From NCBI GenBank assembly GCA_965226495.1, contig OZ245365.1:6048001-6112000 (forward strand): a DNA stretch of 64,000 bases. The letters run 5' to 3'. Position 1 is the first letter of the stretch, and every line of letters begins with the position of its first letter. This document shows, in pieces, positions 4,110 to 63,471 of the stretch. A program made the position numbers and the translations under genes. Source of the stretch: Candidatus Marinacidobacterales bacterium (lineage in GTDB: Bacteria > Acidobacteriota > Vicinamibacteria > Marinacidobacterales > DATDRI01). The notes beneath the pieces are model-generated. The model saw only the letters and a list, made by a program, of their open reading frames with translations, did not search any database and had not been told where the DNA came from.

Positions 4110-5984
4110 TTAGGAACCCAGGCGGAACTTCTGACGGAACCGCATCTGTACGCGAACCTTGGCACCGTCTTTTTCCGCGGGCTCGTATCGCCATTCGGTG
4201 ATGGCATCGAGCACGGCCTTGTCCAGAACCGGGCTCGCAGATTCGACGATGCGGATGTCGATGGGGATGCCCTCCTCGGTCACAATAAACTCGGCCACGA
4301 CGCGGCCCTGCTGTCTCATCTTGCGCGCCATCGGTGGATACGATGGAGGACTACCGGAGATTCTCTTCGGCGCCTTGTCGTCCGGCCCGAGCGTAACGAG
4401 CCCGGTTGGGGTCGGGGGTGGCTCGGCGTCGGGGGCTTCTTTCTCCGGGGCCGTCACCGATTCCTTGCGCGGTGGTTTAGCCGCCGCGACCTTGGGTGCC
4501 GGTGCCGTGTGACGCCGCCGCAATCTTGCCTCGACGTTCAGGCTCTCTCCTGCTCCCGCGGAGACGATGGAGCGCCAAGGATCGTAACCACTTCTTTCCA
4601 CGAGAATTTCGTGTTGGCCCGGCTTGAGCGTCCATTCTTCGATGGGCGCGTTACCGATCACTTCACCGTCGATCGAGACTTGTGCTCCTTCTGGTTGGGA
4701 TTCGAGGAAGAGCGCTACGTCGGCCGGCGACATCGCGAATACGAGGTTCTCTTCGCCGGGGATGGTGATGATCGATTCAACGGGAAGGAACCCTTCCATG
4801 GCGATCCGCACATCGTGTTCACCCGCTTCGAGCTCCGGAAGTTTCAAGGGCGCCGTGCCGGCGAGACTGCCTCCTACCCAAACCTCCGCTCCCAACGGGT
4901 AGGTCTCGATCCGAGGCGCGTAGGAGCCGGAAAAGAGAAACGTCATGACCGCCCAACCGATTGCGAGGGCGCCTATCATGGCGACGGCTCCTATCGTCCG
5001 TTTCCGCCGGTCTCGCGGTCCCTGACGCCTGCGGGTGGTGCTCGATGTCGATTCCGCCCCGCATGCTTCGCCCAGATTGTCGAGAGCCAGTGTCTCCTCG
5101 ACTTGGCTCACGTCAGGAGCCACCGGCGTCTTCTTGGCCTCGGCCGGTGTCGAGACAATCGGAATCTGGAACTGGTCGAACTGCTTCAGATTAAGAGCGG
5201 ACACAAATTCCGGGAAACTCGTGAATCGTTCTGACGGCTTCTTCGCCAGCGCGCAACGGAAGATATCCTCGTACTCGCGAGGGAGCTCGGCTTTCAGCTC
5301 GTGCGGTGGGATCGGGGGAGCATGAACGACCTTATAGAGAACGGTCGTAATGCTGTCACCGGGAAATGGCTTCTTCCCGGTCAGCATCTCGTACGTAACG
5401 ACCGATAGCGAGTACAAATCCACCTGCGCGTTAGCCTTCCCGTGCTCGATCTGCTCTGGAGCCATGTATGACGGCGAACCGAGGAATTGCCCCACCGACG
5501 TCATCACCGTGGACTCCAAATGAACGAGGCCGAAGTCCATGATCGTTGGGCTTCCGTCCTCGAGAATCATGATGTTCGCCGGTTTGACGTCTCGGTGGAA
5601 GATCCCAAGCTCGTGCGCGTACTGGAGAGCGTCGGCGATGGGTGAAACCACCTCCATGGTCTCGTCCAGGGACAGGGAGCCGCGCTCGGCAAGGAGTGCC
5701 AAGAGGCTTTTGCCCTCTAGATACTCCATCACGAAGAAGTTCTCACCGACGTCGAAGATGGTCACGATGTTGGGATGGGAGAGCTGGCCGACTGCGCGTG
5801 ACTCGCGCTGGAAACGTTTTTGGTACTCGCCGGTTTCGTCTTGTGCGAGGACGTCGGCCTTGATGGCTTTGACCGCGACGACCCTGCCAACGAGCGGGTC
5901 ACGCGCCTTGTAGACGGTGCCCATAGCTCCCTGGCCTATTTCACCGAGGATCTCGTAGCGACCGAACGTCTTCTTCTTGGGCAT
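4110..5984 (-). CDS. Ser/Thr kinase - TM - 2x PEGA - TonB C-terminal domain fusion
   Basis: GQGAMG, HRDVKPAN, DFG, YMAPE; PEGA-like ESQPEGAQVSIDG; Pro-rich linker; TonB_C-like YPPMARKMRQQGRV...WRYEPA. Confidence 0.88.
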   Translation of the reverse strand: MPKKKTFGRYEILGEIGQGAMGTVYKARDPLVGRVVAVKAIKADVLAQDETGEYQKRFQRESRAVGQLSHPNIVTIFDVGENFFVMEYLEGKSLLALLAERGSLSLDETMEVVSPIADALQYAHELGIFHRDVKPANIMILEDGSPTIMDFGLVHLESTVMTSVGQFLGSPSYMAPEQIEHGKANAQVDLYSLSVVTYEMLTGKKPFPGDSITTVLYKVVHAPPIPPHELKAELPREYEDIFRCALAKKPSERFTSFPEFVSALNLKQFDQFQIPIVSTPAEAKKTPVAPDVSQVEETLALDNLGEACGAESTSSTTRRRQGPRDRRKRTIGAVAMIGALAIGWAVMTFLFSGSYAPRIETYPLGAEVWVGGSLAGTAPLKLPELEAGEHDVRIAMEGFLPVESIITIPGEENLVFAMSPADVALFLESQPEGAQVSIDGEVIGNAPIEEWTLKPGQHEILVERSGYDPWRSIVSAGAGESLNVEARLRRRHTAPAPKVAAAKPPRKESVTAPEKEAPDAEPPPTPTGLVTLGPDDKAPKRISGSPPSYPPMARKMRQQGRVVAEFIVTEEGIPIDIRIVESASPVLDKAVLDAITEWRYEPAEKDGAKVRVQMRFRQKFRLGS

Positions 5985-55800: not shown

Positions 55801-57162
55801 CTAGTAGACAACCAGCTCCAAGATTTCTAGGAGCCGTCTCACTCCCTGTTTCAACGACTCGACGGGCACGCGCTCGTCGTTTCCGTGGACGGTTTTGTCG
55901 AGCTCGGCTGGGACGATCGTGGGGTCGAAGCCGTAGCTCACGATGCCGAGGTCGCGAAAGAAGTGGCTGTCTGTGAATCCGGTGGAGACCATAGGGATGA
56001 CATCCGCCTCGGGATAGTGTTCCTCGACCACGGTTCGGATGGCGCGATAGAGCTCGGTGTCGGTCGTTGAGACGGCGGGTGTGAAACCCATGATTTTCTC
56101 GATCCGAATCTTGGGGTCGTTGACAATGGATTCGAGAAGCGCGATGAACTCGTCATGGTCTTGATCGGGCAACAAGCGGCAATCGATCTCGGCCGTCGCT
56201 TCCGGCGGAACGACATTGATCTTGTTGCTTCCTTCGAGCCGGGTGATGGTGCAGGTGTTTCGAGTGAGTGCGTGAAGGAATGGGTTATCGAGTTGGAGCT
56301 GGAGTAGAAATTCGGGATCCTTGATGGCTTGTCCGAGGCTGGCAAACTGCTGGCGGCGCTCTCCCTCTTGTTTTTCCGCCAGGCCTTCGAAGTAGATTTG
56401 AACCGATGGCACGATACGAGGTTGGAACTCGTAGTCATCGATTCTGGTGAGCGCTCCGAGGAGACGGCTGACCGATGAGGTGACGTGCGGGGTCGAGCCG
56501 TGGCTGGGTTCTCCCGAAGCTACAAGGCGAAGCCACAGCGGGACTTTCTGTGTGACCTCGACACCGAAGACGAGGCTATCGCCGTCGCGGCTTCCACCTC
56601 CTCCCTCGTTGAGAAGGAGCCCGACGTTTTCGAAGAGCTCGGATCGATTCTCGACCAGCCAACCGGCTCCGTAGAAGCCTCCGGCCTCCTCGTCCGCGGT
56701 GGCTACAAAGAGCACGTCGCGACGCAGCGGCTTTCCCGCCCGATGGAGGGCGAGAAAGGCCTGGAACTGCAACATGCCGGTGCTTTTCATGTCGAGAGCA
56801 CCGCGCCCATAGAGCTCGCCATTGCGAATCTCACCGGAGAGCGGGTCGGTGCTCCAGTAGTCTTCGTCTGCAGGGACGACGTCGGTGTGGTTCAGCAAAA
56901 CAAGCGTCGGCTCGCCGCCGCCCTTCAAACGAGCCCAGATGTTTCCTCGGCCGGGGGCGGACTCGGCGGTCTCGTAGGGAATCCCTTCGGCTTCGAGTAG
57001 CTTGGCGAAAAACTCAACTGCTCGCGATTCGTTGCCGGGCGGGTTGATCGTATCGACTCGGAGATACTCCTGAAGGCGAGAAACTGTCTCGTCTTCGAGC
57101 GATTGCGAGAACGCAAACGATGAGGAGAGTAGAAGCGCTAAAACCCACACGAACCTTTTCAC
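55801..57162 (-). CDS. M20/M25/M40 metallopeptidase, exported
   Basis: HTDVV, GRGALDMK, ADEE, NEGG, HGNDE; GTG start with signal peptide and GGGAG RBS. Confidence 0.9.
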   Translation of the reverse strand: MKRFVWVLALLLSSSFAFSQSLEDETVSRLQEYLRVDTINPPGNESRAVEFFAKLLEAEGIPYETAESAPGRGNIWARLKGGGEPTLVLLNHTDVVPADEDYWSTDPLSGEIRNGELYGRGALDMKSTGMLQFQAFLALHRAGKPLRRDVLFVATADEEAGGFYGAGWLVENRSELFENVGLLLNEGGGGSRDGDSLVFGVEVTQKVPLWLRLVASGEPSHGSTPHVTSSVSRLLGALTRIDDYEFQPRIVPSVQIYFEGLAEKQEGERRQQFASLGQAIKDPEFLLQLQLDNPFLHALTRNTCTITRLEGSNKINVVPPEATAEIDCRLLPDQDHDEFIALLESIVNDPKIRIEKIMGFTPAVSTTDTELYRAIRTVVEEHYPEADVIPMVSTGFTDSHFFRDLGIVSYGFDPTIVPAELDKTVHGNDERVPVESLKQGVRRLLEILELVVY

Positions 57163-57177
57163 AACCGTGCTCCCGGC

Positions 57178-57280
57178 TTCATCTCGTCGGGTAGGAACTT
57201 GAGCGCCACGTGGCGTCCCAAGGGGGGAATCCTCGGTTTCGTAGACGATTCCCATGCTTCCTCCGCCGATCAATTTCAGT
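57178..57280 (-). pseudogene. N-terminal remnant of a Ser/Thr kinase
   Basis: LIGGGSMGIVYETEDSPLG, then after a one-base shift RHVALKFLPDEM. Confidence 0.7.
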
Positions 57281-57354
57281 GGACCCTTCAAGGGTCGGTA
57301 TTATAGTCCATTGGAGCATTGCCCGATGGCAACGGGTCAGCCGCAGAGGACTCT

Positions 57355-57389
57355 GTCCGGACCGAGTAGCTTAAGGAATTACTTGAGGT
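57355..57389 (+). repeat. 35-bp direct repeat, copy 1
   Basis: GTCCGGACCGAGTAGCTTAAGGAATTACTTGAGGT; 34/35 identical to 61451-61485. Confidence 0.9.
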
Positions 57390-57395
57390 AACGAA

Positions 57396-59261
57396 TCACT
57401 CGGGGTAGTTGATCCGGCGCAGAAGGTCTCGGAACCGCGGGTCGGCGCGCAAGCTATCGAAGCTGGGATCGACTCTAGACAAGGTCACCAGGATTTCCCT
57501 CTGCTCGAGCGCCTTGTCGAGCCAATCGAAGGCACGATCCGCGTCGCCTAACGCTGCGTAAATCTGCGCCATGCTCGACGCTCCACCCCCCATCTCGCGT
57601 TGAGGTGGCCGCTCGATCAGCGCCGGGAGCAGCGCCTCGGCTTCGGCGCGTCGGCCCGTCATGGCGAGCCCCCAGGCCATTTGCGCTACATAGGGTGGTG
57701 AGTTTGATATTTCGAGTGCGTTGCGAAATTGTCCAATACCTTTGTCGTGCTGTCCCGAAAAGACGTAGGCCCGTCCAAGAAGCGAGTGGTTGTGGGGGCC
57801 CGCAGGGTTGAGTTCGAGAACTTGTTGCATTTGCGCTATGGCGTGTTCATATTCCCGAGCCATGATGTAGATCAGGACCAAGTTGGCTTTTAGCGGTAGA
57901 ACCAGCGGGTCGAGCTCCTCGGCTCGTCTGCCCATGGCAATGGCTTCGCCGTGGCGCCCGGCCGCGGATAGGTAGAGAGAATAACCGTGATACACATCGC
58001 CCGAGCTGGGGTTTAGCTCGATCGCCCGTTGGTAGTGCGTTTCAGCGTCCAACCAGTTCCAGTCGAGTTGATGGATCGTAAACGCTAGCGAGTAGTGAGC
58101 TTCGGCCACCGTGTCGTCAATCCTGAGTGCTTCGGCTGCGGTTGCTTTCGCCTTTGGGTAATACTCTGGGAAGCCCCACACGCCTAGCCAATGGTACGAG
58201 AACGCTAGACCAGCGTAGGCCGGCGCGAAAGCAGGCGCTTTGGCGATCGCTCTCTGGAAGTAGTCGAAGCTCTTTTGGTGCGATTGGACCCGCTGTTCCA
58301 CGTTCCGCTCGTGGATCGCCGCGTTGAAATAGAAAAGCGCCTTCAAGTAGGCTTGACTAGCCTCTGGGTCGATGGGCGCTGCGCGCGCCAAACGCGTCTC
58401 GTCCTGGGGTGTCAGGTTTACCCGAATCTCGTTCGCAATCGTGTGTGCCACGTCACTCTGCAATAACAGAACATCCCGCAAATCGCGCTCGTAATTCTCC
58501 GTCCAGAGGTGCTGCTCGGTGGACGCGTCGATGAGCTGCGCCGTGATCCGCACTCGATCCCCAACCCGTAGTGCTGAGCCCTGCACGATCGCGTCTACAC
58601 CGAGCTCCCGTGCTATTTCGGGCAAGGCTTTGTTCGAGCTCTTGTACCGCATAGCGGAAGTGCGGGAGATGACCTTCAGGCTACTTATCTTAGCGAGATC
58701 AGCGATGAGCAGGTCGGTCATCCCGTCCGCGAAGTATTCGTCCTCTGGATTGCCGGACGTATTCTGTAGGGGGAGGACGGCGATCGATCTAATCTGTTCC
58801 GAAGGAGCTTGACCCGCGAGCCGGTCTCGCAGGCCGCCTACGTTGAGCCCGATGACGATCGCGGCCGTCGCACAGAGCAAGACCGCGGTGGTTAGTACCG
58901 GGTTCCATCTTCTTCCTTCAGAGTGCGCTAAATGCTCGACGCCATCAACGACGCCGATGAACCGATAACCCCGGCGGGCCACCGTCTCGATATAGCGGGG
59001 CTTCTCGGCGGAATCACCGAGCGCCGTGCGGAGCTTTCCGATAGCGGTGTTGAGGCCCCTTTCGAAGTCTACAAACGTATCGTCGGGCCAAAGCCGCTTC
59101 GTGACCTCCTCGCGGCTGACCATTTCGCCGGGCTGTTCCAGGAGGATTTCCAGTATCTGAAAGGGCTTTTCCTGGAGCTTGACCTTGTGGCCGTGCTTGA
59201 GGAGCTCGCCGGCGCGCAGATCCACGTCGAAATCGTCGAATCGGAGAGTTCGGTTTGCCAC
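57396..59261 (-). CDS. OmpR/CadC-type winged-helix - TM - TolB_N-like - TPR regulator B
   Basis: wHTH ending IETVARRGYRF; TM; SIAVLPL, YFADGMTD; TPR repeats; GTG start at 59261. Confidence 0.9.
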   Translation of the reverse strand: MANRTLRFDDFDVDLRAGELLKHGHKVKLQEKPFQILEILLEQPGEMVSREEVTKRLWPDDTFVDFERGLNTAIGKLRTALGDSAEKPRYIETVARRGYRFIGVVDGVEHLAHSEGRRWNPVLTTAVLLCATAAIVIGLNVGGLRDRLAGQAPSEQIRSIAVLPLQNTSGNPEDEYFADGMTDLLIADLAKISSLKVISRTSAMRYKSSNKALPEIARELGVDAIVQGSALRVGDRVRITAQLIDASTEQHLWTENYERDLRDVLLLQSDVAHTIANEIRVNLTPQDETRLARAAPIDPEASQAYLKALFYFNAAIHERNVEQRVQSHQKSFDYFQRAIAKAPAFAPAYAGLAFSYHWLGVWGFPEYYPKAKATAAEALRIDDTVAEAHYSLAFTIHQLDWNWLDAETHYQRAIELNPSSGDVYHGYSLYLSAAGRHGEAIAMGRRAEELDPLVLPLKANLVLIYIMAREYEHAIAQMQQVLELNPAGPHNHSLLGRAYVFSGQHDKGIGQFRNALEISNSPPYVAQMAWGLAMTGRRAEAEALLPALIERPPQREMGGGASSMAQIYAALGDADRAFDWLDKALEQREILVTLSRVDPSFDSLRADPRFRDLLRRINYPE

Positions 59262-59266
59262 GTAGT

Positions 59267-61375
59267 TCAACTCGTCCCGGGATCGGAACGCGAATACTTC
59301 TTCACGAGCTGCTCGTAGCCGGGATGGTCGCGCAACGGATCCCACAATGGATCCAACTCAAGCCGGGCTACCGACATGATGTCTGACGGGATACTGAGCA
59401 GGGTGTCGAGCTCCTCCAAAGCAGCATCGTCATGTCCAAGCATCGTATAGATCAGCGCCAAGTCGCGCACGCGTGCGTGCCCGCGATCGGGATCGACCTC
59501 AACCGGGACTAAATTGACGGCCTCCTGACCCGCTGCCATGGCTTCCTTCGCGTGACCAAGGCCGGCATGAGCGATCCCGAGGGCACTGTGGATTCGCGGA
59601 TCCCTCGGCCGGTCGCGTAGCTCTGTTTCGAGAACCGCTAGTGCGTCTGCGTAGGCAGAGTCCGCCATGTCTTCCTCGCCAAGTAGTTCGTAAGTTTGAG
59701 CGGCGAGCAGCGCCTTAGGATAGAACCACGTCACCAGATTAAAGGCTTCCTGGGGGGCGGAGCTCACCTTGTCTAGGGCTTCCTCGAACTTTCTTTCGAA
59801 AAGCAGCTGCCGCCACCAGAGCGCCACAGCTACGTCCTGGCTTTGATCTGGAAGCGACGAGACGGCGTCCCGAGCTCTGTCTAAGTCACCCTTCAGCCAA
59901 CTGTTCATTGCGATGAAGATGTGTGTGACGGTCTCCTCGGGGGCGATCGTGAGAAGCAACTCGAGGTAGTGATCGGCCTCCGGGTAACGTCGGAGGCTGT
60001 ACAGTGTCCTTGCAATGTCGGCAGCCAAAGCCTCGTTTCGGGGGTCGAGCCCGTAGGCTTGCTTGAGTCCTGCCAGAGCTTCGTCGAAGTGACCCTGACG
60101 TTTCTTTACGTGAGCCACGAGCCGATAAACAACCGTGTTGTTGGGCAGGCCGTCCGCAGCTATCGTGACCTCCTCCATCGCGCGCGGATAATCACTGTAG
60201 CCCCAAAGGTAAAGGATCCCTTGTGCCCGGTGCGTCTCTGGAAGATCGGGGTCGATATCGAACGCGCGCGCCAACGCCTGTTCCGCGAGCTCGAGTCTTC
60301 CTGGTGAGGGATCGTGACGGTAGAACCAGGCGTGAGCGTTCGCCAGCTCGGCATAGGCTTTTGCAAAGCGGGGATCGAGTTCCACGGCCTTCTCTAGCCA
60401 CTCGATAGCAAGCCGGGCGTCCTCCACCGGAGGAACCCACATATGGGTCAGCCCGCGGACATAGGCCTGGTAGGCTTCCGGGTTATCCGTCGGATTCGTG
60501 TCGAGGGACTTCTGCTCCGCCGCCAGCAAGTTCACGCCGAGCTGATCGATTACCTTCCGCGCGATGTCCGTTTGCAGGCGGAAGATGTCATCCGTCGCTC
60601 CCTCGTATGGCTCCGACCAGATCTGGGTATCATCGGAAACCCGGATGAGTTGCGGCGTGACACGCACGTGACCCTCTCGCCAACGGACGGTGCCTCCCAG
60701 GATGTAGTGAACGTCAAGCTCTTCGCCGATCTGCTGAGTGCGCTTGTCCGTATTCTTGTACTTGATAGCGCTGTTTCGCGAGATCACGCCGATCGCTCTG
60801 ACGACCGCCAGGTGACTGGTGATCTCCTGGGTCATCCCTTCGGCGAAGTAATGATCTTCCGGTTGTCCCAGGTCTTCGAAGGGCAGGACTACGATCTTGG
60901 GACGCTCCGTCGTTTGAATCGGAGGAGAGGTGCGCCAGAGGAGTAGGTAGCCCGCGATCGCTGCAACGACTGCAGCAGCCACGACGGTAACGATGGCGGT
61001 CTTGCGGTTGGAGGATGGTCTGTCTATGGGACCAACCGACGGGTCGATGGAGCCGATGAACCGGTAACCCCGGCGGGCCACGGTCTCGATGTAGCGGGGC
61101 TTCTCGGCGGAATCCCCGAGCGCGGTGCGGAGCTTTCCTATGGCGGTGTTGAGACCTCTCTCGAAATCCACGAACGTGTCGTCCGGCCATAGCCGCTTGG
61201 TGAGCTCCTCCCGGTCGATCATGTGCCCGGGCCGTTCTAGGAGGATGGCTAGAATCTCAAACGGCTTTTCTTGAAGCTTGACTTTGCGTCCGCGCCGGTG
61301 GAGCTCGGCGGAGTGAAGGTCGACCTCGAAATCGCCGAAACGGAGGGTGTCCGAGGGCTCAACGCTAGGTTTCAT
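59267..61375 (-). CDS. OmpR/CadC-type winged-helix - TM - TolB_N-like - TPR regulator A
   Basis: Same architecture: IVVLPFE, YFAEGMT, TPRs, WDPLRDHP. Confidence 0.9.
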   Translation of the reverse strand: MKPSVEPSDTLRFGDFEVDLHSAELHRRGRKVKLQEKPFEILAILLERPGHMIDREELTKRLWPDDTFVDFERGLNTAIGKLRTALGDSAEKPRYIETVARRGYRFIGSIDPSVGPIDRPSSNRKTAIVTVVAAAVVAAIAGYLLLWRTSPPIQTTERPKIVVLPFEDLGQPEDHYFAEGMTQEITSHLAVVRAIGVISRNSAIKYKNTDKRTQQIGEELDVHYILGGTVRWREGHVRVTPQLIRVSDDTQIWSEPYEGATDDIFRLQTDIARKVIDQLGVNLLAAEQKSLDTNPTDNPEAYQAYVRGLTHMWVPPVEDARLAIEWLEKAVELDPRFAKAYAELANAHAWFYRHDPSPGRLELAEQALARAFDIDPDLPETHRAQGILYLWGYSDYPRAMEEVTIAADGLPNNTVVYRLVAHVKKRQGHFDEALAGLKQAYGLDPRNEALAADIARTLYSLRRYPEADHYLELLLTIAPEETVTHIFIAMNSWLKGDLDRARDAVSSLPDQSQDVAVALWWRQLLFERKFEEALDKVSSAPQEAFNLVTWFYPKALLAAQTYELLGEEDMADSAYADALAVLETELRDRPRDPRIHSALGIAHAGLGHAKEAMAAGQEAVNLVPVEVDPDRGHARVRDLALIYTMLGHDDAALEELDTLLSIPSDIMSVARLELDPLWDPLRDHPGYEQLVKKYSRSDPGTS

Positions 61376-61450
61376 GAGGCTGGCCGCCTGCTCGCGCTCA
61401 ATCTACACCCTGGGAGCCGTCGGCGTCGAGCCTATCCGCTGAACGAACTC

Positions 61451-61485
61451 GTCCGGACCGAGTCGCTTAAGGAATTACTTGAGGT
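61451..61485 (+). repeat. 35-bp direct repeat, copy 2
   Basis: GTCCGGACCGAGTCGCTTAAGGAATTACTTGAGGT. Confidence 0.9.
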
Positions 61486-61669
61486 CGACCGCCCTCGAGG
61501 CGGTTCGAAGATCTCAACTCCCGCTCATCCGATCAGCCCTCCAGAAACCACAGTCTCTTTATTTTTAGTCACTTAGAAGGTTATCCGCAGTTTAGCGACG
61601 GATCGCTCGCGGTCCATTTATGCCTGCCCGCCCCTGTCCCACATTGGCCTCAGTTCAAAGGAGGCGGTC

Positions 61670-62314
61670 ATGGACAGGAAATTCCGAGGGCGTGGACGGC
61701 AGCAGTTAGCAGTTATCTTACTAGTCGGTCTGGGCGTACTTGCGCAGGGTCAGGCCGCTCGAGCGGACGAGGAGCTTCAGCTCCGATTGGTGTGGGTCAA
61801 TGCGGCTACCGAATTCCCTTTGGCATTCGACCTAATGTCCGGAGAGGTGGATTTCATTTTCGCCGGCATGGAAATCGAGGTGGTGTGGAGTGACACGACT
61901 TCCGCCCTTCTCGACCAGGACATTCCGACGCTGAGGGTCGTCCTCACACCGACCGAACCTTCGACTTGGGGACTGGGAGAGGAGACGATGGGGGTGGCGC
62001 CGCGTGCCGGCGGGAACGGCGCATCGATCTACATCTTTCTGGGGAGCATTCTGCGAGTGCTGGGATTCGACCTAGACGGTGATCGGCGGATGAGTCCCGA
62101 GGACCGGCGGGCCATAGCACGCGCGGTCGCTAGGGTCGTAGCCCATGAAGTGATTCACGTTCTCGATGAACACCCGGGGCACGCTTCCCGAGGTATCGTC
62201 AGTCCGAAGCTGGACCGAGACTTCCTTAGTCAGCCAAAAGTGCAATTGTGGCCCGCGACAGCGCGGATGGTTCGCGCTGGGTTGCTTGCTTTATCTCAGA
62301 AACCGAGGACGTAG
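61670..62314 (+). CDS. Secreted protein with metzincin-like HExxHx6H motif
   Basis: Signal peptide ending ARA; AHEVIHVLDEHPGHASRGIV; GGAGG RBS. Confidence 0.75.
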   Translation: MDRKFRGRGRQQLAVILLVGLGVLAQGQAARADEELQLRLVWVNAATEFPLAFDLMSGEVDFIFAGMEIEVVWSDTTSALLDQDIPTLRVVLTPTEPSTWGLGEETMGVAPRAGGNGASIYIFLGSILRVLGFDLDGDRRMSPEDRRAIARAVARVVAHEVIHVLDEHPGHASRGIVSPKLDRDFLSQPKVQLWPATARMVRAGLLALSQKPRT

Positions 62315-63471
62315 TCGACGAACAGGCGATTCATCGTGGCCGCCTCACCGAGCTCGGGCTCGGTTCGGTACCACGTGAAGTTTAGAGATTGTCCCGCCGG
62401 CATGGCAACGCGGAAATCGACCCGGGTGCCGTTCAAATTGGATGCGCGGCTGGTGTCGGACTGGGTGTAAGCATAGAGAATGGCGTCGGGCTGCGAGTAG
62501 TAGTAGGTGAAGCGAATCGCGAGATCTCCAAAATTTCTTCCGCCTCCAACCGCGGCGCGAAAGAAAAAGCCGGTGTCGTTATCCGTTCCTGTTCCCTGGG
62601 CGCCGGTGCCGATCTCGGTACCGAGTTGGTTCTTGGCACCGGTGTTCTTGTAGTAGAAGAAACGAAAGGCCAAAGGCCAATCTTCAATCGATCCGTTGCG
62701 CCAGTCGGCGAAGGCGGTCAAAACGCGGAAATCGCTCACCAGCCGTCCCGACTCATCTAGCAAGTTGGTCACTCTGTTTCCCCCGAGCTCACCGGCGAGG
62801 GTCAGGTCCACAACGAGTTGAGGGTCGACGTAATAGTCGTAGCCCATACCAACCACAAGCGTGTCATGTTCTCCGATCTTGAATCGGGGGCGAACCTGAG
62901 CTCCGAGTAGCCAGGCGGCCTCTTCATCACCCTGCTCGAGAACGATCTGATAGACGCTCGCGCCAAGACGCTCTAGGATTCCCTCGTCTGCGCTTTCCAG
63001 CCTCAACCGCTGCATGAAGCCTTCCGTGGTCACGTCGCTGTCCCACTGCATATCCGAGACCACCCAATACCTGCGATGCTCGAATTTGCCGGCGACCACA
63101 TAGAAACTCTTGGCGAGTCGGAAGTCCGCGTAGACTTCGGCCAGCTTGAAGTCCTTTTTTCCGAGGCCTCCACCAAAGTCCTGATTGTCGGAGACGGGGT
63201 TTCTTGGATTGCCGCTCCGGAACTCGAATCCTGCGTCGAGGAAATCGTTGACGTCGGCTTCGACTCCAGCCCTCAATCGATATCGAAAGACGTCCTCGAA
63301 TTCCTCCCGCTTCCTCGCGTCATAGCGGAAACGCAAATCGGCGTAGAAGTCCATCTTCTCGTACCATTGCTTGGGTGGATCTTCAGGGGGGTCTTGAGGT
63401 TCTTGGGACTGGGCGAATAAAGAAGTGCCCAGAGTGAGCAGGGCGCAGGTGCACAAAAGAACTTTCTTCAC
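62296..63471 (-). CDS. Putative outer-membrane porin
   Basis: Signal peptide, DLRFRY/RYRLR beta-strands, C-terminal Phe. Confidence 0.75.
   Translation of the reverse strand: MKKVLLCTCALLTLGTSLFAQSQEPQDPPEDPPKQWYEKMDFYADLRFRYDARKREEFEDVFRYRLRAGVEADVNDFLDAGFEFRSGNPRNPVSDNQDFGGGLGKKDFKLAEVYADFRLAKSFYVVAGKFEHRRYWVVSDMQWDSDVTTEGFMQRLRLESADEGILERLGASVYQIVLEQGDEEAAWLLGAQVRPRFKIGEHDTLVVGMGYDYYVDPQLVVDLTLAGELGGNRVTNLLDESGRLVSDFRVLTAFADWRNGSIEDWPLAFRFFYYKNTGAKNQLGTEIGTGAQGTGTDNDTGFFFRAAVGGGRNFGDLAIRFTYYYSQPDAILYAYTQSDTSRASNLNGTRVDFRVAMPAGQSLNFTWYRTEPELGEAATMNRLFVDYVLGF

Follow-up and report, generated by a model that had tools for sequence, protein, structure and literature searches.

We analyzed a 64,000-nt stretch of the genome of a Candidatus Marinacidobacterales bacterium (contig OZ245365.1, positions 6,048,001 to 6,112,000; "the window" below) and found a locus that suggests a circuit of sensors and a protease. 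The locus contains two tandem genes for membrane-anchored sensors (R1 and R2), a divergent gene for a small exported protein with an HExxH motif, and a 35-nt DNA element with one copy on each side of the sensor pair (Table 1). Our preferred explanation, to which we assign a probability of roughly 45%, is that the sensors regulate genes for exported peptidases through the 35-nt element. It builds on the domain layouts of the sensors, the fold and the invariant zinc site of the peptidase, the repeat and its conservation, and the nonrandom adjacency of peptidase and sensor genes. The evidence for the parts, which comes from sequence and structure, is solid; the evidence for the wiring between them is circumstantial.

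If this explanation is correct, then R2 and R1 would be co-transcribed one-component regulators in the style of ToxR and CadC, each with a cytoplasmic OmpR-type winged helix, one membrane span, and a periplasmic sensing module that combines a TolB-like part with tetratricopeptide repeats (TPR). The shared target sites of R1 and R2 would be the 35-nt element, with CTTAAG and CTTGAG as half-sites. These targets would lie between the sensor operon and the divergent peptidase gene, upstream of a gene for an M20-family peptidase, and upstream of a distant lipoprotein operon; R1 and R2 may also act on their own operon through the element. Their main output would be a compact zinc endopeptidase with a metzincin fold, which would be exported and probably located in the periplasm. 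Together with the M20 exopeptidase and a porin, it would form a sensor-controlled module for the degradation of peptides and proteins in the envelope. We infer DNA binding by the winged helices, control that runs from the sensors to the peptidase genes, the location and the substrate of the peptidase, and the signal.

Both sensors have the arrangement that a preliminary description of this DNA had proposed for them: a winged helix, a transmembrane segment, a probable TolB-like N-terminal part, and TPRs, encoded by two tandem open reading frames (ORFs). The match to Trans_reg_C (PF00486) is strong in R1 (67.2 bits, E = 1.4e-18, residues 52-129) and in R2 (65.8 bits, E = 3.7e-18, residues 29-106), given the Pfam cut-off of 26.2 bits. 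C-terminal to the winged helix, the translation of each gene has a single hydrophobic stretch of about 22 residues (as judged by eye). Both proteins match several TPR families in Pfam and the TPR end-of-group domain in NCBIfam (TPR_END_plus is listed for R1, with 58.9 bits and a cut-off of 32). Residues 182-321 of R1 are similar to positions 19-158 of TIGR02800 (TolB) at 41 bits (E = 1.1e-10; the cut-off of 343 is for the whole of TolB), and relatives are named "TolB-like protein" by JGI. The CadC model of NCBIfam (NF007540) gives 60.8 bits for R2 and 47.6 bits for R1, as compared to a cut-off of 400, and it covers just the winged helix.

The likely start of R1 is not that of its longest ORF but a TTG at 59270, which yields a protein of 624 amino acids (aa) with an N-terminus equal in length to that of R2. 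This TTG overlaps the stop codon of R2 as TTGA, so R2 and R1 are probably in one operon. R1 and R2 are about 36% identical overall, but their DNA-recognition parts are identical: the recognition stretch FVDFERGLNTAIGKLRTALGDSAEKPRY(I/V)ETVARRGYRFIG is common to R1 and R2 from this genome and from a congener (G302). Because they combine the same DNA-recognition surface with different sensing modules, R1 and R2 should act on the same sites. We also considered whether recent gene conversion might have kept the winged-helix parts of R1 and R2 alike, but this is not supported: the DNA identity of these parts is slightly higher between orthologs from this genome and G302 (0.81 and 0.85) than between the paralogs (0.76 and 0.80), which argues that selection maintains the similarity.

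The sensing module seems to be a widespread and exchangeable unit, as the outer part of R2 resembles that of several hundred Ser/Thr kinases. Among 8000 scored candidates, 748 proteins were similar to the periplasmic part of R2 at E <= 1e-10, with 40-47% identity for the best of them. Most of the best relatives carry a Pkinase domain, and some are labelled as Acidobacteriota or Planctomycetota. We also considered a role in anti-phage defense. We dropped this idea because nothing in PADLOC pointed to it: for R1, R2, the peptidase, and the porin, the PADLOC models gave weak generic TPR matches for R2 alone (E = 1.2e-5).

An operator-like element between the sensors and the peptidase gene had been proposed as well, and it proved to be a real and conserved 35-nt repeat. 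The CTTAAG-N6-CTTGAG at 61466-61483, with half-sites 12 bp apart, lies within copy 2 of this repeat. Copies 1 and 2 form a direct repeat, are identical at 34 of 35 positions, lie 4096 nt apart, and flank the sensor pair. The core, GCTTAA-N4-TTACTTGAGG, has 16 specified bases and is present in three exact copies in this 6.3-Mb genome, while about 0.003 copies are expected (by our own arithmetic). It is also present twice in G302, at orthologous places. In the genome under study (G000), the third exact copy is at G000:C1:2796023-2796042 (5024-5043 of locus L108), upstream of genes for a lipoprotein (361 aa) and a secreted protein of 543 aa. A promoter-like TTGCCT-18-TATTAT begins 26 nt past this third copy. 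From the third copy to this lipoprotein gene, which is downstream, the distance is 150-170 nt in both G000 and G302; in another congener, G301, an inserted element with two ORFs (513 and 257 aa) now separates the site from the lipoprotein gene.

Copy 2 is conserved in both G302 and G301, and copy 1 is present at the orthologous place in G302, where 22 nt are deleted after copy 2 and 27 nt before copy 1. The adjacent gene shows divergence at its synonymous sites (pS 0.37-0.43, dS 0.5-0.64). Across the five copies that we compared, the spacer of 4-6 nt varies, and the bases of the core are maintained. CTTAAG is palindromic, which allows the half-sites to be read as either direct or inverted repeats.

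The gene order M20 peptidase, element, R1, R2, element, small peptidase, and porin is fully kept in G302. There, the ortholog of the small peptidase is 81% identical, the ortholog of R2 is intact, and the ortholog of R1 is broken up, with three ORFs in its place (186, 369, and 235 aa; L070 1829-4609). In G301, where the peptidase is 77% identical, its gene (L071 6998-7588) ends early, so that the protein has 187 aa and lacks the C-terminal helix. A transposase gene is 1.4 kb away from it, and homology to the window stops about 20 nt past the element. The porin gene adjoins the peptidase ortholog in both congeners.

The small protein encoded divergently from the sensors had been described as metallopeptidase-like, and both its predicted structure and its family agree. 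It has HEVIHVLDEHPGH at residues 159-171 and, as judged by eye, a signal-peptide-like N-terminus (a basic stretch, a hydrophobic core of 13 residues, and then A-R-A). The ATG is preceded, at a distance of 6 nt, by AGGAGG, which is a good ribosome-binding site. The protein matched no family in Pfam at E <= 0.01 and no family in NCBIfam. An exhaustive search identified 525 representative clusters of relatives at E <= 0.001, of which 203 were at E <= 1e-10, and we aligned 133 of the best 150 relatives. H159, E160, H163, and H171 are present in all 133. H168, which the preliminary description may have counted as the third zinc ligand, is present in just 9, so this role belongs to H171. The second and third histidines are separated by 7 residues in 132 of the relatives and by 6 in the other one, and the spacer does not contain a conserved glycine. 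A few relatives have weak matches to zincin families in Pfam: Peptidase_M10 in 9 of the 133 (best E = 0.0031), eCIS_core in 6, and SprT-like in 6. A profile search of the PDB by sequence gave chance-level matches alone (E >= 0.28).

A model of the small protein from the single sequence had a pLDDT of 36, and we replaced it with an alignment-based AlphaFold2 model (pLDDT 88.4, pTM 0.82). The top matches of this model in Foldseek were archaemetzincin (E = 3.4e-4) and ADAM33. In the VIA structure search, the top matches were ADAM-8 (Z = 12.5, rmsd 2.6, 142 residues aligned), archaemetzincin (Z = 12.2), and adamalysin (Z = 12.1), and lower-ranked matches included ADAM10 and ADAM17 (Z = 10.6-10.7), ADAMTS, MMPs, snapalysin, and ulilysin. 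The best 24 rows (Z = 12.5-8.7) were all from the ADAM/ADAMTS/adamalysin, archaemetzincin, MMP, snapalysin, or ulilysin groups, except for 6o38_A, whose title names no protein. A protein language-model atlas gave clusters of "hypothetical protein" alone, mostly from Acidobacteriota, and the nearest named clusters were Peptidase_M10/reprolysin. Most relatives (108 of 133) have methionine at alignment position 177, in the context G-L-M, shortly past the third histidine, which may resemble the Met-turn of matrixins. The gene is under purifying selection, with a dN/dS of about 0.19-0.21 relative to the two congeners. Given the lack of matches in the family libraries, the invariant H-E-H-H, and the metzincin fold of the model, we predict that the small protein is a compact metzincin-fold zinc peptidase of an undescribed family. 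We found no description of this family, or of its pairing with sensors, in the literature that we searched.

Apparent long fused forms of the peptidase, with frames of 565-654 aa in four genomes, turned out to be GC-rich run-ons upstream of a normal signal peptide. In a divergent subgroup of 263-320 aa, the match to the family profile is in two pieces (positions 8-131 and 157-220), which is suggestive of an insertion before the active-site helix. An example is G205:C104:11437-12069, and the subgroup is common in families f14 and f32. Also, several members in other genomes are split by a frameshift into two overlapping ORFs (L040 17131-17795, L051 6926-7635, and L053 6989-7644), which could be due to decay or to assembly errors.

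In this genome, all four copies of the peptidase family are 224-295 bp from a match to a winged-helix or Ser/Thr-kinase domain. A random 650-bp segment of the genome is within 400 bp of such a match 3.8% of the time, so the chance of four together is about 2e-6, although the copies may not be fully independent. The partners differ in type and orientation: besides the two winged-helix and TPR proteins of the window, they are a winged helix with PD40, a winged helix with TPR, and a kinase with PD40. The last of these is accompanied by a divergent extracytoplasmic function (ECF) sigma factor and a kinase with TPR.

Of the 301 genomes in a sample of the phylum, 34 have matches to the family, as do 25 of 41 relatives. 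We surveyed 42 family loci in 40 regions, of which 20 were picked from among the better full-length matches of the phylum sample on long contigs and 20 from the 48 non-own matches among the relatives. Matches on short contigs, the divergent two-piece subgroup, and the unpublished genome G307 were left out of the survey. Using Pfam on the called ORFs (Trans_reg_C, Pkinase, or PF07638), an adjacent gene for a sensor or an ECF sigma factor was present at 13 of the 42 loci (7/22 and 6/20). With tblastn, which does not depend on the ORFs, there was a match within 1100 bp at 15 loci, or at 18 if we include three loci whose sensor gene abuts by its far end. In these counts, two loci are inverted duplicates on one contig, two matches are to kinase fragments, and several loci are orthologs of this genome's own copies.

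Overall, the partners include a winged helix with a PD40 propeller, a Ser/Thr kinase with PD40 or TPR, a winged helix with both a kinase and PD40, and pairs of an ECF sigma factor and a kinase. A pair of this last type, with a PF07638 sigma factor, adjoins one of the own paralogs (genome 4550757-4551818) as well as loci L055, L057, and L077. Several peptidase/sensor pairs are co-directional, with gaps of 27-174 nt. The preliminary description had suggested a test of whether homologs are consistently beside genes for winged-helix and TPR proteins. Adjacency to a sensor of some kind was borne out for every own copy and for a sizable part of the other loci, but not for most of them, and the partner is not specifically a winged helix with TPR. 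With at most 18 of 42 loci next to a sensor, and with such varied partners, the link seems to be frequent but not obligatory.

The loci without a sensor have a peptidase theme of their own. Their neighbors include peptidases from families M17, M19, S15, S9, S8, C69, and M81, along with DAO, RidA, and an alanine symporter. A fixed context of M17 aminopeptidase, DUF3810, peptidase, and DAO-type oxidoreductase, with no sensor gene, is shared by 5 of 20 loci (L072, L075, L078, L083, and L086). A different arrangement, with a peptidase, a kinase, and a ParA-type gene, is present twice on contig C8 of G130 (L040 7031-7840 and L041 6530-7338) as an inverted duplication; one of its peptidase copies is frameshifted.

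Several observations weigh against regulation of the peptidase genes by R1 and R2 through the element. The tandem hexamers that the preliminary description emphasized are not unusual by themselves: we saw 8 pairs of this kind, as compared to 5.4 +/- 3.6 in shuffled sequences. Also, the first half-site is CTTAAA in two of the five copies, and the second is one base short in G301. There is no plus-strand gene downstream of copy 1, which would need to work in the opposite orientation to serve the M20 gene. No winged-helix gene is within 50 kb of the third site, and the element could thus belong to another factor. A promoter scan did not find a sigma-70-like promoter in 61200-61800. At three positions that are nearly invariant in its family, the protein from the window has a different residue (D44N, P167E, and M177V), so its activity as a peptidase is not assured. 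Across genomes, 24 of the 42 loci elsewhere do not have a sensor neighbor, and the background rate of about 4-6% is from this genome alone, while related loci are not independent. Finally, G301 retains the peptidase, the porin, and the element but not the sensor pair.

The metzincin might instead be a working part of the signaling path, either as a periplasmic sheddase or site-1 protease that cuts the outer domain of the sensor or as the maker or destroyer of a peptide that the sensor reads. The locus would then represent a two-gene protease-sensor module with a swappable cytoplasmic output (a winged helix, a Ser/Thr kinase, or an ECF sigma factor with a kinase). This would fit with the recurrence of the same small family beside sensors with different outputs and outer domains, and with the co-directional pairs, whose short gaps are as expected of one operon. 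ToxR, TcpP, and CadC are under proteolytic control; the sheddases ADAM10 and ADAM17 are among the nearest solved folds; and the loss of the sensor pair from G301 coincides with a truncated peptidase gene. However, the likeness to ADAM proteins is a matter of fold ancestry and not of a role as a sheddase, and 24 of the 42 loci elsewhere are without a sensor neighbor. There is also no outer domain that is common to the partners: the profile of the TolB-like module of R2 matches just 3 of the 14 partners, each of them a TPR protein, and we rejected this module as a shared docking domain. Fused forms were absent among the proteins of 535-2000 aa that we searched, which is weak evidence. The lack of a common outer domain and the peptidase theme of the sensor-less loci favor a regulated output over a docked partner, and we consider it unlikely that the metzincin takes part in signaling. 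The same doubt applies to a broader version, in which Acidobacteriota use a modular cassette of protease and sensor: a periplasmic mini-metzincin (HExxH-x7-H) would cleave the outer domain of the sensor or generate its peptide, and the output would be exchangeable. If true, such a cassette would be a bacterial counterpart of ADAM-type ectodomain shedding, and in the window it would take a two-sensor form that has its own 35-nt operator.

Another explanation is that there is no dedicated link: the metzincin would be a general exported nutritional peptidase, the sensors would merely be abundant, and the element would belong to another regulator. Potential sensors are common in this genome, which has 96 Pkinase matches, 16 Trans_reg_C matches, and 10 long winged-helix genes in its 6.3 Mb. 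The setting of most loci elsewhere, among genes for peptidases and amino acid metabolism and without a sensor, is also consistent with this, including the fixed context with M17 and DAO. So are the third copy of the element, with no winged-helix gene nearby, and G301, with a peptidase and an element but no sensors. Yet sensor genes are beside all four own copies (chance of about 2e-6) and beside 31-43% of the loci elsewhere, as compared to the background of about 4-6% in this genome, and in two genomes the copies of the element bracket exactly the sensor pair. A complete lack of a link therefore seems rather improbable to us. We think it quite improbable that the 35-nt repeats are scars from the arrival or duplication of the sensor cassette, that is, boundaries of recombination or insertion rather than operators. 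The repeats do flank the cassette exactly, and in G301, where the cassette is absent, homology ends just past the element and a transposase gene is nearby. But there is a third copy, conserved in three genomes, and the lipoprotein gene downstream of it is unrelated. Both flanking copies persist in G302 at orthologous places despite a dS of about 0.6, with the core kept and the spacer free to vary, and there is no integrase or transposase within the cassette.

Regulation of an exported peptidase by the sensors would resemble known systems. CssRS-HtrA/HtrB and Cpx-DegP are two-component systems in which an envelope sensor switches on a nearby gene for an exported serine protease. The logic that we propose is the same, except that here a one-component membrane regulator would be linked to a zinc metzincin-like enzyme. 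R1 and R2 share the layout of ToxR and CadC, with an N-terminal cytoplasmic winged helix, one membrane span, and a periplasmic sensing part. The outer part is different: a TolB-like module and a long TPR array replace the periplasmic domains of ToxR, VtrA, and CadC.

VtrA/VtrC and ToxR/ToxS, which have this layout too, are "co-component" systems, in which the adjacent partner has a lipocalin-like periplasmic fold (10.1101/2022.04.08.487670). They are also similar to our locus in that a small exported protein is encoded next door. The neighbor differs in fold and arrangement: here it is metzincin-fold rather than lipocalin-like, and its gene is divergent rather than overlapping. ECF sigma factors that are paired with Ser/Thr kinases (ECF43 type) are described in the main text of PMC7826278, in which the word "metalloprotease" does not occur. 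Pairs like these are the ones beside one of the own paralogs and three of the loci elsewhere; the window locus itself does not have a sigma factor.

The peptidase has the catalytic-domain fold of metzincins (a five-stranded sheet, the active-site helix, and a C-terminal helix) in common with archaemetzincin, snapalysin, adamalysin/ADAM, and matrixins (Z = 12.5-8.9 over 129-152 residues), and it has, as in other metzincins, HExxH on the active-site helix and a third histidine. It differs from them in that its motif is HExxH-x7-H, without a glycine in the spacer, rather than HExxHxxGxxH/D. Also, the protein from the window lacks a propeptide, a cysteine switch, or any cysteine.

Each genome of Acidobacteriota encodes dozens of membrane sensors whose outer domains are TolB-like/TPR or PD40, and we found no studied example in the literature that we searched. 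This locus offers a testable handle on them, with a short conserved DNA element in three copies, two sensors that share a DNA-reading surface, and candidate target genes. The peptidase family is new and was missed by Pfam, NCBIfam, and the PDB by sequence; its active-site signature is clear, and its structure is modeled with confidence. A protease that acts on the sensors, if this is the case here, would represent a new wiring of one-component, kinase, and ECF signaling to envelope proteolysis.

Table 1. Features of the sensor-peptidase locus, numbered from the first nucleotide of the window
Feature	Position	Strand	Description
M20-family peptidase	55801-57291	(-)	Pfam Peptidase_M20 (1.1e-31) and M20_dimer; candidate second target of the element
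Element copy 1	57355-57389		6 nt past the R1 stop, between the genes for R1 and the M20 peptidase
R1	57396-59345	(-)	Longest ORF 649 aa; winged helix, one membrane span, TolB-like module, TPR
R2	59267-61375	(-)	702 aa; paralog of R1; winged helix, one membrane span, TolB-like module, TPR
Element copy 2	61451-61485		76 nt upstream of the R2 start, 185 nt upstream of the peptidase start
Conserved leader/promoter blocks of the peptidase gene	61574-61640	(+)	Invariant runs 61596-61606, 61612-61621, and 61629-61639 in three congeners
Putative zinc peptidase, metzincin fold	61670-62314	(+)	214 aa; HExxH-x7-H at 159-171; signal-peptide-like N-terminus; no Cys
Putative outer-membrane porin	62296-63471	(-)	Pfam Porin_5 (1.3e-21); convergent with the peptidase gene, ends overlap by 19 nt

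The longest ORF for the M20 peptidase contains an internal signal-peptide-like stretch, so its real start is probably later. Within the leader of the small peptidase gene, a consensus hairpin (CGACGG...CTGTCC) is weak, with almost no covariation in three sequences, and Rfam had no family at E <= 1 in 57100-62400. The window also contains two more Ser/Thr kinase domains, at 1261-2049 and 5220-5957 (genome 6049261-6050049 and 6053220-6053957). Lastly, an AT-rich stretch, GGTATTATAGTC, is present at 57280-57307 and is kept in G302. Its plus strand has a promoter-like TGGACC-16-TATAGT, and its minus strand has TATAAT towards the M20 gene.

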